The notes below the pieces were generated by a model. It searched no databases, had not been told where the DNA came from, and worked only from the letters and a program-made list of their open reading frames with translations. From Roseovarius sp. (GTDB lineage Bacteria; Pseudomonadota; Alphaproteobacteria; Rhodobacterales; Rhodobacteraceae), in assembly GCF_027019125.1 (NCBI RefSeq), contig NZ_JALUXE010000004.1, positions 21,785 to 85,784 of the forward strand: a stretch of 64,000 nt of DNA, read 5' to 3'. A program made the translations under genes and the position numbers. Below, in pieces: positions 58,891 through 64,000 of the stretch. The first letter of the stretch is position 1; each line of letters opens with the position of its first letter.

Positions 58891-58980
58891 GGAGAGGTGC
58901 CGGAGTGGTCGAACGGGGCGGTCTCGAAAACCGTTGTGGGGGCAACTCCACCCAGGGTTCGAATCCCTGTCTCTCCGCCA
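58891..58980 (+). tRNA. tRNA-Ser(CGA)
   Basis: Acceptor GGAGAGG/TCTCTCC, anticodon arm GCGGT-CT-CGA-AA-ACCGT, long variable arm, T-arm CAGGG-TTCGAAT-CCCTG, encoded CCA. Confidence 0.97.
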
Positions 58981-59325
58981 CAAATCTTTATTTTCATATT
59001 GTTTAACAACAAGTTACCATACTTTAAGAGATTGTCTTCCCACACTTTTTCCCACGCTTATATTTGAGTGGTAGGGGCTTTTCCGAGCATCGGACTTTTA
59101 AGCTTTGAACTGACATTGTGAGAATGTTGCCATCCACGCCGGTCCTCAAACAAAGCTGTCAGACTTTCACCCCGCCCCCCCTTTCAATAGCATTGCCTAC
59201 GGTGGAGCACAAAGAGCAGGACTTAACCTTCCGGCCATTCTCTCGAATTAAAATTCTTGGATTGCTCAAGTCGGTGCTCTGACGCACGTGGAAATAGCGG
59301 TCGAGGAGCCGCGCACTCCTATAAC

Positions 59326-60303
59326 TCAATCAGATTTGATATCTGCCGTTTTCGATTGATTGTAGCCGTAGGCTGAATCAAGATTTTCAGTAACGATCTC
59401 ATCGATGACTTTTATCTGCGCATCTTCAAAGTAGTCTCGATATCCACCGACTTTGGCACGCCGAACCTTGTAGCTATCTGGAATACTCTTATCGCCCGGG
59501 TTTAAACGCGCACCGCTAGTTCGAAAACTCTGCTCGGCCTCTTTCTTCTTCATGTTTTCGTACGAGGCGTAATCGACCGCCTCTGTTATCTGCGCTGCAC
59601 TGGCGGGAATTTCTAGGAACCGAGCGACCCGGGCTAACTCATTGACCGGGTCGGCCCGCATGTTCTCGTATTTGACAATTTCATGCGCGCGGGTGTTTAC
59701 CAATTCCTCTGCCCAGCTATTCATGAAGTTAATGATCCTGCGTAGCCCGCTTCTGTCATCTTGCACAAACTCGAACATCGAAAGATCGCTTCCGTGAGGT
59801 GGATAAAAGCTAAGCTGCTTCTTCCATGGTTGTGTGCGAAAGCGCCAATGAAAAAAACTTGAGACCACAACATCGCGAGGGTCCCGCACCATCAAAAGGA
59901 CCTTCTTGTCGTAGAAATCGAGCTTCGTCGATGTATTGCCAGAATAATCCCGGATAAACTCGTCATGTGTGAAAAGCAGACGTGGAATGCGACGGTCTAT
60001 GTAATGGAAATTGTCGAATCCGATCACAGCATCTTTTGGCAGATCATATACCTGTTGATAGAGCCGCGAGATCATTACTCTTAGCCAGGTGCGTCCGCTT
60101 TTTGCGTAAGAAACAATGACCGCATCAGCGCTTTGAAGCTGATCATACTGCTCGCGTCCTCTCAATTGCCGCTCGGCACCAAGACGTTGTTCATGATTTG
60201 CTCTCGTCAGGCTGAGATGCAATCTAACAATGCTGCGTCGCGCTCTTCTTCGGGCTTGATGAATGAGCTGGGGGAGCGCTGCACGCATGGTTCTTGTGCT
60301 CAT
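59326..60303 (-). CDS. PAPS-dependent sulfotransferase (Sulfotransfer_1-like)
   Basis: 5'-PSB SYAKSGRTWL, 3'-PB VRDPRDVVVS, KYENM, KVRRAKVGGY. Confidence 0.9.
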   Translation of the reverse strand: MSTRTMRAALPQLIHQARRRARRSIVRLHLSLTRANHEQRLGAERQLRGREQYDQLQSADAVIVSYAKSGRTWLRVMISRLYQQVYDLPKDAVIGFDNFHYIDRRIPRLLFTHDEFIRDYSGNTSTKLDFYDKKVLLMVRDPRDVVVSSFFHWRFRTQPWKKQLSFYPPHGSDLSMFEFVQDDRSGLRRIINFMNSWAEELVNTRAHEIVKYENMRADPVNELARVARFLEIPASAAQITEAVDYASYENMKKKEAEQSFRTSGARLNPGDKSIPDSYKVRRAKVGGYRDYFEDAQIKVIDEIVTENLDSAYGYNQSKTADIKSD

Positions 60304-60516
60304 TGAGAATTCATCCGATCATCGAATACGAAATGCGCGCTTTCTTGAGGCCCGGGTCGTATGGGGCGGCATTTCGTGCTAATCAACCCACCCTATGATT
60401 TCTCTGACTCCGGTCTGTATGTCCATGCTAATTTCACCGAACTTAGTGCTTTTCTTATTGCATACCGTTGGCTTATATCTAGCCGCTCAACTAACACCAC
60501 TACGATAGCGGAAACC

Positions 60517-61446
60517 ATGACTATAAAATTTAGAGATATTGACGAGACAACGTTAGCTCTTTCTCCTGATACAGTAATTTCGTCGTTCTCCCCGTTCGTC
60601 TGTAATGATCAAAAATCTGAAGGTCGTATCCGCCGGATCATCAAGATTTGGTTCAAGACTGCGAAGCGGGTCGTGAGGCGCCTTTTCGGTAGAAAAAGTT
60701 CATCTAGCACTCGCAGCAAGGACGTGATCAAGGACGAGTACGAGGTCACTTGGTCGCGTGGTTATGCGGCGTATGATCTAGATGTAGGGTGCCGCAAGCC
60801 CGAACCTTGGCTTGTGCGAGGTAAAGGTATAATGGCTGACCGATCTGGCGTGCCGAGATGGCGCAACTTGATCCTCAACGCGGCTATAAAATCAATCAAG
60901 CCGCGTCGCGTGCTTGAAGTTGGGTGCGGTAATGGAATAAACCTCATCCTCCTCGCAAATCAGTTCCCCGATATTTCCTTCACCGGGCTTGAGTTGACAG
61001 ACGCAGGAAATCGTGTTGCACGTGATTTACAGAACGTTGCTACGTTTCCTTCCGCTCTCGCTGCATATCCTTTTATCCCCGCGACTGATCCCGAGGCGTT
61101 CCGCAGAATCAACTTTGTGCGTGGTGATGCGACCGCCATGCCGTTTGATGATGGCGAATTCGATTTGGTATTTACGGTGCTATCAATCGAACAGATGGAG
61201 CGCGTACGCGATAAAGCGCTGGCCGAAATCGGGCGCGTCAGCGGTGGCCATGTTCTGAATATGGAGCCATTCGCAGAGGCCAATTCTTCGCTGCTGCGTC
61301 GCGCTCACGTATTTGGACGTGACTATTTTCGCGGGAAGATAGATGATCTGAGCCAATACGGATTAGAACCCATCTGGGCCACGATGGATTTTCCTCAGGA
61401 GGTTCAGCTAGGAGCAGCACTCGTGTTGAGCCACAAGAGCATTTGA
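60517..61446 (+). CDS. Class I SAM-dependent methyltransferase
   Basis: VLEVGCGNG, GLE, GDATAMPFDDGEFDLVFT; start uncertain (60361 or 60517). Confidence 0.88.
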   Translation: MTIKFRDIDETTLALSPDTVISSFSPFVCNDQKSEGRIRRIIKIWFKTAKRVVRRLFGRKSSSSTRSKDVIKDEYEVTWSRGYAAYDLDVGCRKPEPWLVRGKGIMADRSGVPRWRNLILNAAIKSIKPRRVLEVGCGNGINLILLANQFPDISFTGLELTDAGNRVARDLQNVATFPSALAAYPFIPATDPEAFRRINFVRGDATAMPFDDGEFDLVFTVLSIEQMERVRDKALAEIGRVSGGHVLNMEPFAEANSSLLRRAHVFGRDYFRGKIDDLSQYGLEPIWATMDFPQEVQLGAALVLSHKSI

Positions 61447-61657
61447 TCTTTAAAGGGAAGGATATTGCTGGTCCTAGATCGGCTTTGGGACCTTAACTAG
61501 GATATGTGTATGTTCCCTAATCCCGAGTTCCACCATTTCGAATCTTTTTGTGTATTTTCCGAGAATTATAAGAACATTTCTAAAGTCCGAAAGTTCCTTG
61601 CCCTCCGAGATTATTGGCTGGGTCAAGAGCAAGGTTTCCATCCAAAAGAGCCCCCTC

Positions 61658-61736
61658 TGACAAAACCGACATAACCGACAAAACCCATCCGACGCGGCTT
61701 GCCCGCGAGGTTCTGTCGGTTTTGTCAGTTCTGTCA
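61658..61736. repeat. Two inverted arrays of three 9-bp repeats (iteron-like origin)
   Basis: TGACAAAAC-CGACATAAC-CGACAAAAC, 25-bp spacer, GTTCTGTCG-GTTTTGTCA-GTTCTGTCA. Confidence 0.85.
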
Positions 61737-61816
61737 GCCGCCCAAAGCGCACTTCGTTTTCGTGGTGAGAGACCCGCACAATGTTGCGAATTCAATGAAA
61801 ACCGTACGAAATAAAG

Positions 61817-62101
61817 CTAATTCCCAATCAGCGCATCCAACTCTTTCTGCTCTTCAATGAACTCACGCACGGACTTGCGCATATCGTCCAATTCGCGCGA
61901 CCTGCCACCGTGCTTCCACTGGGGGTGTGATGGCCCGGCCTTGTGACCACCGCCAGCGCCATGAACGCGACACACGGCCCAGCCACGCACTGCTGGGCAC
62001 TTGCAGCGCTCTCCAGAGCGCTTGGCCTTGGCACGGCACCTGGGGGCGTCTCTGAGGCGCTGTACCGGGCTGATGGGGTTAGCGTTACTTTTTCTCGCCA
62101 T
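61817..62101 (-). CDS. HGGxSTG-like zinc-finger protein (small-terminase-related)
   Basis: PRCRAKAKRSGERCKCPAVRGWAVCRVHGAGGG...WKHG. Confidence 0.78.
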   Translation of the reverse strand: MARKSNANPISPVQRLRDAPRCRAKAKRSGERCKCPAVRGWAVCRVHGAGGGHKAGPSHPQWKHGGRSRELDDMRKSVREFIEEQKELDALIGN

Positions 62102-62615
62102 CCCCACCCCCATGGCTCACGGTGCCGACAATGGCCTGCCCGCCATCTTCCACTGTCACACGCTCCACCCGGACAACCTGCTGCGCCTTGGCCCGGTATT
62201 TTTTCAACGCTTCGGTCTGGCTGATGAATGTCCGCGCCAGACGCGTGGCGGCCCGCTCGTAGACTTCGAACCTTTGCAGCGTGTCCGAGTCCATCATGCG
62301 CTGTGACGTCACCGCTAGCGCTGCGTTGGTGGCAACCATCTGATTAACCAGCATCGCCTCGACCGCATCCTGCGGCTCCATTTCAGCAGGCATCGCCGCC
62401 ATCATGTCCCGGTATAGCTCCCCCTTGTTGCCCAAGCTGTCTATGGCTGTCAGCAACAACCCCTTGCCAGCTTCTCGGGTTTTGATGCCATAGAGGGCCT
62501 TCAGTTCATCATCGCCGTGAAGAGTGACTTCAACATCACCGTCATCGTTCACACCGAACTTGGGAAATCTGCGGAGTTGTTTGGCTTTGGAGATGTCTTG
62601 TTTCGGTTTGGTCAT
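62085..62615 (-). CDS. Conserved hypothetical protein of integrative elements
   Basis: EPQDAVEAML..QMVAT...LARTF..Q.EAL..YR...QQVVRVERVTV.DGGQAIVG; overlaps the HGGxSTG-like gene. Confidence 0.8.
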   Translation of the reverse strand: MTKPKQDISKAKQLRRFPKFGVNDDGDVEVTLHGDDELKALYGIKTREAGKGLLLTAIDSLGNKGELYRDMMAAMPAEMEPQDAVEAMLVNQMVATNAALAVTSQRMMDSDTLQRFEVYERAATRLARTFISQTEALKKYRAKAQQVVRVERVTVEDGGQAIVGTVSHGGGDGEKK

Positions 62616-62956
62616 TGCTTCGATTCCCCTTCAGTGGCCGGTATGTGTTTTACGTCCGTTCCTGACCCCGAGCGCGGCCCATGCCTTTCCCAGTCTGATA
62701 AATTGCGCCAAGTCGCTCGCGACACGACGCGCCCGGTATAGGTTAGCAGTCTTCTCCCTACGGATGCGCCATAGGGAGAGGTCGTTTCCGGCTCTATTTC
62801 TCTGAGCGAGGTATTGGAATTTTCAACCGCACCCCCTGCTACATCCGCTACATTCGCTACACTTGGACGGGCAGGTTTCGCAGGGGCGGCAAGTTCGGAA
62901 CGGGGCGTTTCTGCCCCACCCAGGCCTTGCAGCGCGGCTTGCGCATCAAACCACAT
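62612..62956 (-). CDS. Small hypothetical protein carrying the second repeat array
   Basis: ATG overlaps the DUF3987 stop; MWFDAQAAL...VANVADVA...TYTGRVVS..TW..LSDWERHGP. Confidence 0.55.
   Translation of the reverse strand: MWFDAQAALQGLGGAETPRSELAAPAKPARPSVANVADVAGGAVENSNTSLREIEPETTSPYGASVGRRLLTYTGRVVSRATWRNLSDWERHGPRSGSGTDVKHIPATEGESKQ
62838..62864. repeat. Three tandem 9-bp repeats (second iteron-like array)
   Basis: GCTACATCC-GCTACATTC-GCTACACTT, preceded by CCCCCT like the first array. Confidence 0.75.
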
Positions 62957-64000
62957 CGCCGGCCCCCCGCACGATCCGCCATGCTGTCTTGCGCGCCGCG
63001 CCTCGAACAACCGTGCCGGGTTCGAGCACCACCAGCCAGCTGTGCTTTTCCAAGAGTTTCAAAGCCGCTGTTGCCTTCGGACTGTCGCGTAAAGCACTTG
63101 GCCCATATTGCAGCACATCGCGCGGGGTGATTTCAGGCTCCGTCCAGCTTTCCAGAAGCCATGTGCGCAACCGTTCCGCCCGGTCGATTTCAACCGATAC
63201 GGTTGCTGCATCAGCCAGCCGCGCAGCTTCTGACAGATAGAACTGCGCCAGCGTAATAGCATTCGCCATATCTGGCGCAGCCACCTCAGCCGCATGCAGA
63301 TCACGCCAGAGCGTTAGAACACCGGAGATCCGCGCGGCCTGTTCGGCTGCTTTGGATGCCGTACCTGTGACATGTTCGAGATTGCCGCCCTTTGCCTGTG
63401 CCACCTCGATTGCATCTGCAAACTGGATCAAAAGCTTTCGCGCACCGCTGCCTAGCGCAAGAACGCGCGGCTGTAGTTCACGGGTTTCTGCGTCCATCGG
63501 CAGGGGTGTTTCCAAGATTTCCCGCAACCTGTGTGAGAATGCCGCCAATGCGCCTTCATCGGGGCGTATGTGCGCATGCAGCCGTGTCCCTATGCGGCTT
63601 GGCGGTTCGCAGATCAAAAAGCGGGGGAGAAAGCCGCTATCTGCGGCCATTGGATCAGACATGAACGCCCGCGCGACACCGGGCTGCGCCATCAGGTGCA
63701 CCGCAAGCCGCCGCCCATAGAGCGTATATGCACCGTCACCTGCCCGCGTGCGCCGGATCGGATTGCCCTGCCAAAGGTCATTCAAAGCCGTCAGCGTCTT
63801 TTGCCGGTTGTCGCTGTTCATGGCATGCCCGCCCAGGAATTGTCCGCCTTCATCCGAAAAGATGCCAAGCGATGGCTGTCCGGTTGCATAGAGCCGGGTC
63901 AGTCCTTCAAAGGTCGGTTCCGTCACAACGCGATCAGGATAGGGGGGCGCAGCCGGTTCTTTCTCCAAGTCGTCCATATCGGCTTGCGCCGCAACCCGCT
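62946..64000 (-). CDS. DUF3987/YfjI family replication (helicase/primase-associated) protein, 5' part off the window
   Basis: EPTFEGL, IFSDEGGQFLGG, LNDLWQG.PIRRTRAG, SGFLPRFL, C-terminal wHTH-like region; frame stays open past 64000. Confidence 0.85.
   Translation of the reverse strand, partial: RVAAQADMDDLEKEPAAPPYPDRVVTEPTFEGLTRLYATGQPSLGIFSDEGGQFLGGHAMNSDNRQKTLTALNDLWQGNPIRRTRAGDGAYTLYGRRLAVHLMAQPGVARAFMSDPMAADSGFLPRFLICEPPSRIGTRLHAHIRPDEGALAAFSHRLREILETPLPMDAETRELQPRVLALGSGARKLLIQFADAIEVAQAKGGNLEHVTGTASKAAEQAARISGVLTLWRDLHAAEVAAPDMANAITLAQFYLSEAARLADAATVSVEIDRAERLRTWLLESWTEPEITPRDVLQYGPSALRDSPKATAALKLLEKHSWLVVLEPGTVVRGAARKTAWRIVRGAGDVV

Follow-up and report, generated by a model that had tools for sequence, protein, structure and literature searches.

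A probable helper-dependent, satellite-like island integrated in tRNA-Ser(CGA) of Roseovarius sp. carries a widespread helical-hairpin and zinc-finger gene pair

The stretch of DNA analysed here, called the window below, comprises 64,000 nucleotides of a Roseovarius sp. genome (contig C4, NZ_JALUXE010000004.1, positions 21785-85784). The genome amounts to 3.77 Mb in 34 contigs, and C4 runs 9.5 kb further than the window. At the window's end, positions 61817-64000 of the minus strand are occupied by four co-oriented, overlapping genes, as an earlier note on this DNA had described and as the list of open reading frames (ORFs) confirms. We present an analysis of these genes and of the ~8.8-kb island to which they belong. 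In our reading they probably constitute the distal half of the core operon of a self-replicating, helper-dependent, satellite-like integrative island in tRNA-Ser(CGA).

The first of the four genes, with a DUF3987 domain, is cut by the window edge (62946 to >64000), so that only its C-terminal two thirds lie inside (PF13148, 220 bits for the window part). The full gene (C4 84730-86301, reaching window-equivalent position 64517) codes for a helicase-like replication protein of 523 amino acids (aa) that scores 312.8 bits against PF13148 and 195.6 bits against phrog_2373, labelled 'DNA helicase'. Next comes a small, poorly conserved ORF of 132 aa, p132 (62612-63010), with homologues in 2 of 22 related loci and without a family match in Pfam, NCBIfam and PHROG scans. 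It is followed by p176 (62085-62615), a helical-hairpin protein of 176 aa, here also called FAM, whose ORF shares an ATGA stop/start overlap with its upstream neighbour. The last gene of the core operon, p98 (61817-62113), overlaps p176 by 29 nt and encodes a small CCCH zinc-finger protein of 98 aa, or 94 aa if counted from the second ATG.

The earlier note had anchored these genes at a tRNA, and rightly so: the 3' end of tRNA-Ser(CGA), located on the plus strand at 58891-58980 (ARAGORN; Rfam tRNA model, 52.5 bits), is repeated exactly downstream, beyond the window. The tRNA gene is the integration target and its 3' end forms attL, the core of which is the 15-nt direct repeat CTGTCTCTCCGCCAC at 58967-58981 (967-981 in locus L001, whose coordinates equal window coordinates minus 58000). 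Its exact copy, attR, lies outside the window at L001 9763-9777 (C4 89547-89561), just past the integrase gene. According to the repeat search, attL and attR agree exactly over 15 nt and at 25/31 nt over the extended repeat, with a spacing of 8,796 nt; a given 15-mer is expected by chance ~1e-5 times per 10 kb. Because CTGTCTCTCCGCCAC recurs at this distance from the tRNA 3' end, the island measures ~8.8 kb, and it extends 3.8 kb past the window edge.

The part of the island outside the window contains four further genes, all on the minus strand. Upstream of DUF3987 is a primase of 292 aa with Toprim_3 and DUF7146 domains and an N-terminal cysteine cluster (C4 86223-87101; Pfam, with the PHROG label primase), preceded by a winged-helix protein of 134 aa (HTH_91 in Pfam; C4 87193-87597), by AlpA (67 aa; C4 87601-87804; PF05930, 64.6 bits) and, across a gap of 346 nt, by a P4-type tyrosine integrase of 418 aa (C4 88151-89407; Arm-DNA-bind_3, Phage_int_M and Phage_integrase). 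From attR the order is thus integrase, AlpA, winged-helix protein, Toprim primase, DUF3987, p132, FAM, p98, methyltransferase, sulfotransferase and attL within the tRNA gene. The last two protein genes are cargo. The sulfotransferase (59326-60303, minus strand; Pfam Sulfotransfer_1, 98.7 bits) and the SAM-dependent methyltransferase (60361-61446, plus strand; Pfam Methyltransf_25 and Methyltransf_11) are both low in GC, the former lying in a region of ~48%. In the GC profile, the ~2.8 kb that separate the tRNA from the four genes have 46-54% GC, as against ~63% around them. The methyltransferase gives a weak match to the mad2 model of PADLOC, in which the methyltransferase domain alone is covered.

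Extension of the contig thus brought to light all the genes that the earlier note had predicted there, namely integrase, AlpA and primase. Its gene set holds, and its map needs one correction, the 2.8 kb of cargo between tRNA and operon. The outcome it had named as refuting, a full prophage or an integrative conjugative element (ICE) downstream, did not appear; attR is followed by RND efflux genes. As in the window, where the earlier note had seen none, no phage structural gene was found on contig C4 as a whole. In Pfam, NCBIfam and PHROG scans, no capsid, portal, tail, terminase, relaxase, coupling or secretion gene was found among the island proteins. The tRNA-Ser site is hypervariable: it differs in every same-genus genome examined, and one of them carries a different integrase there. 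Just outside attR, at L001 9912-11018 (window-equivalent 67912-69018), there is an ORF of 368 aa with lowered GC that matches the C-terminal part alone of Type IIG restriction-modification enzymes. This fragment is probably left over from an earlier island that occupied the same tRNA-Ser hotspot.

The gene content invites comparison with several known classes of mobile elements. Integrase, AlpA and a DUF3987-type primase form the core that was shown to be necessary for PICMI satellites and that suffices there for a phage satellite (PMC10803314), and the PICMI model of SatelliteFinder looks for an integrase, AlpA and a DUF3987 or DUF5906 primase together, with integration next to fis as a mandatory feature (PMC10803314). 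In the island the triad is complete within 4.7 kb of one strand (AlpA 64.6 bits, DUF3987 312.8 bits), but the site is tRNA-Ser(CGA) and not fis. PICMIs, which are known from Vibrionaceae, resemble the island in this core, in the lack of capsid-remodelling and terminase genes, in their marine hosts and in their accessory or defence-type cargo. They differ in being ~6 kb long and inserted next to fis, whereas the island has 8.8 kb, sits in a tRNA gene and belongs to a host from Rhodobacterales. Beyond the PICMI gene set, the island has a separate Toprim primase, the winged-helix gene and the FAM-zinc-finger pair, the last of which is not described in PMC10803314. PICMIs are induced by a virulent helper phage and packaged by it as concatemers.

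The nearest ecological analogue appears to be the VEIMEs, judging by their description. Alphaproteobacteria do harbour elements of satellite type that are found packaged in marine virus particles (PMC9618062), and VEIMEs share with the island the marine setting, a size of 5-15 kb and the combination of tyrosine integrase, AlpA and primase/helicase; some are integrated in Alphaproteobacteria, and some carry small-terminase homologues (PMC9618062). As a class, however, VEIMEs are defined by concatemers found inside virus particles. With P4-like elements the island has in common the P4-type integrase, the AlpA-family regulator, the zinc-binding Toprim primase, the helicase-like protein, the tRNA site and the cargo hotspot. 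It differs from P4 in the absence of Psu, Sid, Delta and Epsilon homologues, in having primase and helicase on separate genes and in the tRNA-distal position of the integrase. Neither p132, p176, p98 nor an additional small ORF, orf101, matches psu, sid or delta functions in Pfam, NCBIfam or PHROG, and the island does not belong to the P4-like class because these genes are absent.

Gram-negative phage-inducible chromosomal islands (PICIs; EcCICFT073) and SaPIs show the same succession of integrase, regulator, replication genes, small genes and accessory genes. Unlike them, the island has no recognisable small terminase (TerS), Rpp, Ppi or Cpm and no pri-rep fusion. As to a PICI packaging module, no TerS family or fold is matched, and the p98 finger is shared with phage proteins in TerS position; membership in the TerS family itself is not indicated, with no large terminase (TerL) in the island and no TerS fold for p176 or p98. 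The lack of structural genes and the tyrosine type of the recombinase set the island apart from capsid-forming PICIs (cfPICIs) and PLEs. Integrative mobilisable elements (IMEs) and ICEs would be recognised by relaxase, coupling or type IV secretion families, none of which occurs among the island proteins. The island is not a demonstrated carrier of a small terminase, and it is neither P4, cfPICI, PLE nor a strict PICMI.

A second DUF3987 gene of the genome, on contig C34, is closely followed by a canonical HGGxSTG domain (70.4 bits, above the cut-off of 29 bits) and marks a second island of 6.6 kb (C34 237561-244167; L071 6561-13167), outside the window and laid out like the first. It is flanked by a 16-nt exact repeat of the 3' end of tRNA-Leu(CAG) and consists of integrase, a 230-aa ORF, an AlpA-like gene, a 144-aa ORF, Toprim primase, DUF3987, a 114-aa ORF and a gene for a 170-aa protein. 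The Toprim primases of the two islands are 65% identical and their DUF3987 proteins 25% identical. In both islands the integrase is at the tRNA-distal end and a zinc-finger gene is the last of the operon. The 170-aa protein of the second island is an XRE-type HTH domain (HTH_31) fused to canonical HGGxSTG. No FAM homologue was found in this island.

Small islands integrated at tRNA genes with an integrase-AlpA-primase core are a known kind, and PICMIs (PMC10803314) and VEIMEs (PMC9618062) are satellites that have been characterised by experiment; it is the FAM-zinc-finger pair that sets the present island apart. Close homologues number 435 for p176 and 132 for p98. Almost all of them are unnamed, and the named ones come from marine Rhodobacterales. 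Within the family of the host, p176 is found in 25 of 301 genera, a patchy distribution that corresponds to a mobile-element pattern. When 1.84 billion representative proteins were searched with a profile, at least 7,758 clusters (50% identity) matched at E<=1e-3, and 4,502 at E<=1e-10. No match to p176 was obtained in Pfam, NCBIfam, PHROG or PADLOC, no recurrent Pfam domain was seen in 34 long FAM members, and the pair as a whole matches no defence protein of PADLOC.

The association of the two genes is tight. In 20 of the 22 Rhodobacterales loci the gene right after p176, in the same orientation, is a p98 homologue. In a wider set of 80 loci from named genomes (Hyphomicrobiales, Methylobacterium, Mesorhizobium, Rhodospirillales, Rhodobacterales and some bins placed in other phyla), an ORF with the pattern C-x-C-x-C-x2-HG[GA] was found within a few hundred nt downstream of FAM on the same strand in 76 cases (gene calls in fetched loci follow a longest-ORF heuristic). 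This ORF is either of the 'HGAGGG' subtype of p98 or of the canonical 'CRMHGG' subtype. Apparent fusions of FAM with p98 turned out to be overlapping genes in different frames, except for one deletion derivative. Upstream of the pair there are at least five kinds of replicases: DUF3987 (or a Toprim-DUF3987 fusion), Prim-Pol, AAA_25, HTH_36 and VapE/DUF5906. The cargo downstream varies too, and includes a Type ISP restriction enzyme, a McrB-like protein and a Dcm methylase. Its position between variable replicases and variable cargo makes the pair a portable backbone module. In three IMG/VR loci the pair is located just downstream of tail-type genes, which are a 566-aa TMP_3 protein and a Pam3_gp18-like plug in L073 and L074 and tail fibre genes in L078; no capsid or portal genes are nearby in any of the three.

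The Cys/His finger that the earlier note had seen in p98 was confirmed: all of 56 aligned homologues have C26-x10-C37-x10-C48-x2-H51, and the WKHG motif hardly varies among them. The score of p98 against NF041373 (HGGxSTG) is 18.8 bits, or 21.4 bits in a six-frame search, below the curated cut-off of 29 bits; phrog_3678 is matched at E=1e-5. From its sequence p98 is best called a divergent HGGxSTG-type finger of the 'HGAGGG' subtype, with the same CCCH spacing. The closest phage relatives of the p98 family come from Thermus phages, Cumys_44 with an hhalign probability of 98.6% and phiMa_01 with 98%. Cumys_44 (L179; Thermus phage Cumys 41302-42054) is not found beside a terminase; it lies between a replication initiator, a DNA methyltransferase and a giant helicase. 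Cumys_44 and phiMa gene 01 (L056) are 237-250 aa long and consist of a zinc finger and a long helical tail, and these Thermus phage relatives lie in a replication-type gene block, beside a putative helicase of 1,617 aa.

Other phage relatives point towards the terminase. A canonical HGGxSTG island protein matches the N-terminus of the product of the gene directly upstream of TerL in the Ralstonia phages Hyacinthe, Raharianne and Albius and in Pasteurella phage Pm86. Among the homologues of those phage proteins is gene 1 of Bacillus phage Bolokhovo, annotated 'putative terminase small subunit'; Enterococcus phage proteins annotated as TerS match the Pm86 protein, and further homologues are the first or last genes of Staphylococcus, Klebsiella and Microbacterium phages. 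The p98 family itself aligned by hhalign to Pm86 ORF53 with 72% (E=3e-5), to the Hyacinthe protein with 34% and to the Bolokhovo protein with 25%, whereas the match to gp85 of Microbacterium phage FuzzBuster, at 95%, concerns the finger only. Hyacinthe gene 4, Pm86 ORF53 and Bolokhovo gene 1, putative terminase subunits by position or annotation, have the same CCCH finger and following KHG motif as p98. They are proteins of 184-224 aa (184-250 aa for the phage relatives as a whole) with a long helical C-terminal half, while p98 has 98 aa and one helix, and the profile similarity is weak (25-72% probability over 27-49 aligned columns). FAM gave less than 2% in hhalign comparisons with the phage HGGxSTG proteins, their upstream neighbours, p132 and the 114-aa protein of the second island; as far as sequence profiles tell, it is not homologous to the helical C-terminal half of the phage HGGxSTG proteins. 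The finger would appear to serve some phages as the DNA-binding head of their small terminase.

The link between HGGxSTG and TerS that the earlier note had drawn can be kept in part, as the finger does head proteins in TerS position. The identification of p98 as such a protein is not supported: p98 is a divergent member of half their length and lacks their long coiled-coil C-terminus. Structural models lead to the same point. The AlphaFold2 model of p176 (pLDDT 84, pTM 0.71) begins with a short hairpin, continues with three short helices and a long helical hairpin over residues 84-145, and ends in a tail of low confidence, to which the most conserved motif of the family, QQxVRVERVTVxxGGQAIVG, belongs. 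The p98 model (pLDDT 79) shows a zinc knuckle and one C-terminal helix. Foldseek searches of both models against PDB and BFVD gave no match at E below 0.3. For p176 the best values were E=1.3 in PDB and E=0.32 in BFVD; the HK97 and 44RR small terminases were listed at E=2.3-4.6 with an rmsd of ~9 A, no better than unrelated helical proteins. The best PDB match of p98 was the MCM10 zinc finger at E=4.8 over 28 residues, and profile searches against PDB sequences gave nothing. In the absence of a significant Foldseek match, the TerS-like fold that had been suggested for p98 and p176 is unsupported.

Relatives of the island provide one sign of mobility. The Logan contig ERR12421925_10951 (L064), 9,413 nt long with identical 30-nt ends, encodes integrase, AlpA, an AAA_25 replicase, FAM and cargo. 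Closure into a 9,383-bp circle restores an intact p98-like ORF that spans the junction, and the contig is best interpreted as an excised or episomal member of the family, probably a free circle. Seven FAM-bearing metagenome contigs of 8.7-9.4 kb were examined as candidate free circles, and the other six (L002, L003, L063, L065, L181 and L182) are chromosomal fragments without terminal overlap. IMG/VR matches were considered as evidence of encapsidation and rejected, as they are integrated elements or mosaic contigs; in one of them, L059, a 46-nt tRNA-derived repeat flanks the element.

Possible helper functions in the genome are few. Its single HK97-type capsid gene, on contig C2, lies 7 kb from a GTA_TIM gene and thus belongs to the cluster of a gene transfer agent (GTA) of the RcGTA type, which extends over ~423.8-432.1 kb of C2 (GTA_TIM, 500 bits). 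A lone intact TerL is encoded at C2 342833-344245 (L185, L187); TerL proteins of Brevundimonas, Roseobacter and uncultured phages share 45-55% identity with it. The 10 kb to each side of this gene contain no integrase, no tRNA and no structural operon in the same orientation.

On these grounds we propose the following life cycle. AlpA and the integrase, judged by their families, would excise the island as a circle, for which PICMIs offer an experimental precedent, and the primase and DUF3987 protein would copy this circle. As it has no capsid, tail, terminase or conjugation genes, the island must borrow a helper that would carry it to new cells. No resident complete prophage was seen, and the helper would have to be an infecting phage, a GTA or a plasmid; gene content makes an infecting phage most probable, with the resident GTA or a conjugative plasmid as alternatives. 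FAM and p98, which are translationally coupled, may form a DNA-binding complex, with the zinc finger coming from p98 and a helical core, perhaps an oligomeric one, from FAM; this complex would act after replication. Of the phage satellite or helper-exploiting element suggested by the earlier note, the satellite-like island is thus probable from its gene content; a packaging role is plausible, and a TerS fold is unsupported.

Several observations weigh against a helper-dependent satellite. The triad of integrase, AlpA and primase is also generic for genomic islands that are not satellites. Pairs of FAM and p98 occur on five plasmids, directly after Rep-like genes, which fits a replication role as well as hitch-hiking. 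For L064, a small plasmid or a tandem array is an alternative reading. The genome shows only the GTA capsid gene and the isolated TerL as helper parts, with no complete prophage seen, and no clean empty attB next to the efflux genes was found within the fetched flanks of 30 relatives. An immobile remnant, a decayed prophage or island, would suit the finding of no helper in the genome and the Type IIG fragment of an older island just outside attR. We regard such decay as very improbable, for the core genes are all intact and tightly coupled, the repeats are exact, and the family is patchy and diverse, with one circular relative. If the island were an integrative mobilisable element, a conjugative plasmid or ICE would transfer it by way of an oriT mimic, with the pair as relaxosome accessory proteins. 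This reading would agree with the plasmid-borne relatives of the pair, two of them on plasmids typed as mobilisable, and with the rule that small islands mostly need a helper of some kind (review PMC11389934). It is nevertheless improbable: relaxase, coupling protein and mobilisation families are missing, the sole match to a TraI model is a Toprim-like region far below the cut-off, and an AlpA and primase-helicase core is typical of satellites.

If the island is satellite-like, as we prefer, the task of its FAM-p98 pair has still to be weighed, and here a replication or regulatory function competes with packaging. The pair could be a replicon accessory, such as an origin-binding, copy-control or transcription factor, in which case transfer would depend on generalised transduction, GTA uptake or plasmid co-transfer. 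Its constant place directly after the replicase gene, whatever the type of replicase, suggests as much, and so do the plasmids, on which the gene before the pair is Rep-like with an HTH_36 domain or codes for a Toprim protein of 1,152 aa, the replication initiator, methyltransferase and giant helicase around Cumys_44, and the fusion of HGGxSTG in the second island to an XRE-type HTH, a typical regulator module. However, no known family of replication or regulatory proteins resembles the pair, the inverted repeat arrays beside p98 are not conserved in relatives, and the second island, which has the 65%-identical primase and presumably replicates, does without FAM, so that FAM is not obligatory for that type of replicon. 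We consider this role less likely than not. A packaging role of the pair is plausible from sequence comparisons. In its full form, FAM and p98 would be a two-part surrogate of the small terminase, in which the finger picks island DNA and a FAM ring presents it to the TerL of a helper or GTA, with concatemers being packaged. The HGGxSTG-type finger as N-terminus of the gene just upstream of, and overlapping, TerL in the Ralstonia phages and Pm86 speaks for it, as do the terminase annotations of Bolokhovo gene 1 and of the Enterococcus proteins, the alignment of the p98 family with Pm86 ORF53, and the position of the pair downstream of replication genes, where PICIs hold their packaging genes. 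The FAM model, with a small N-terminal domain, a long helical hairpin and a strand-like tail unstructured in the monomer, has what we take to be the outline of a small terminase, and HK97 and 44RR small terminases are among its non-significant fold matches. Against this stand the poor quality of those matches (best TerS at E=2.3, rmsd ~9 A), the absence of any FAM relative in 50,697 phage records and of profile similarity to phage HGGxSTG proteins, the replication-region setting of the closest phage relative of p98, and the presence of the pair on plasmids. We consider this full form doubtful. The broader notion that FAM and an HGGxSTG-type finger are an unrecognised module redirecting the large terminase of a phage or GTA to island DNA seems to us rather unlikely; if true, it would define a very large unnamed satellite family across Alphaproteobacteria and beyond, with thousands of protein clusters and interchangeable replicases.

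A full-text literature search for phage satellites of Rhodobacterales with integrase and primase returned no paper. In a roseobacter-type genome, the island is a concrete and intact case of this kind, and a sister island accompanies it in the same cell. The gene pair is extremely common yet unmodelled: FAM counts at least 7,758 clusters at 50% identity, and none of Pfam, NCBIfam and PHROG has a model for it. Since the finger is common to phage proteins in the TerS slot, hijacking of packaging by the pair is a specific and testable hypothesis; if the pair serves replication instead, it is a new accessory of many unrelated replicases. Once either role is settled, thousands of 'hypothetical' gene pairs could be annotated, which would help explain the spread of defence and other cargo among marine Alphaproteobacteria.

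Some minor features of the locus complete its description. At 61657-61737, ~80 nt past the p98 stop, three 9-bp units GACAAAACC and three units of their complement surround a GC-rich spacer. The repeat search gives 20-nt arms with 95% complementarity, and TRF reports the arrays at L001 3659-3685 and 3710-3737. They might serve as a cis site or as the terminator of the operon; the idea of a conserved origin or pac site was rejected, as 14 of 16 relatives lack them. An Rfam scan found the tRNA alone, and promoter and terminator scans gave counts at the level of shuffled sequence. The ~340 nt that separate the tRNA 3' end from the sulfotransferase gene (58981-59320) are AT-rich and non-coding and contain a 12-nt tandem repeat, TTCCCACACTTT, in 1.9 copies at 59037-59059.

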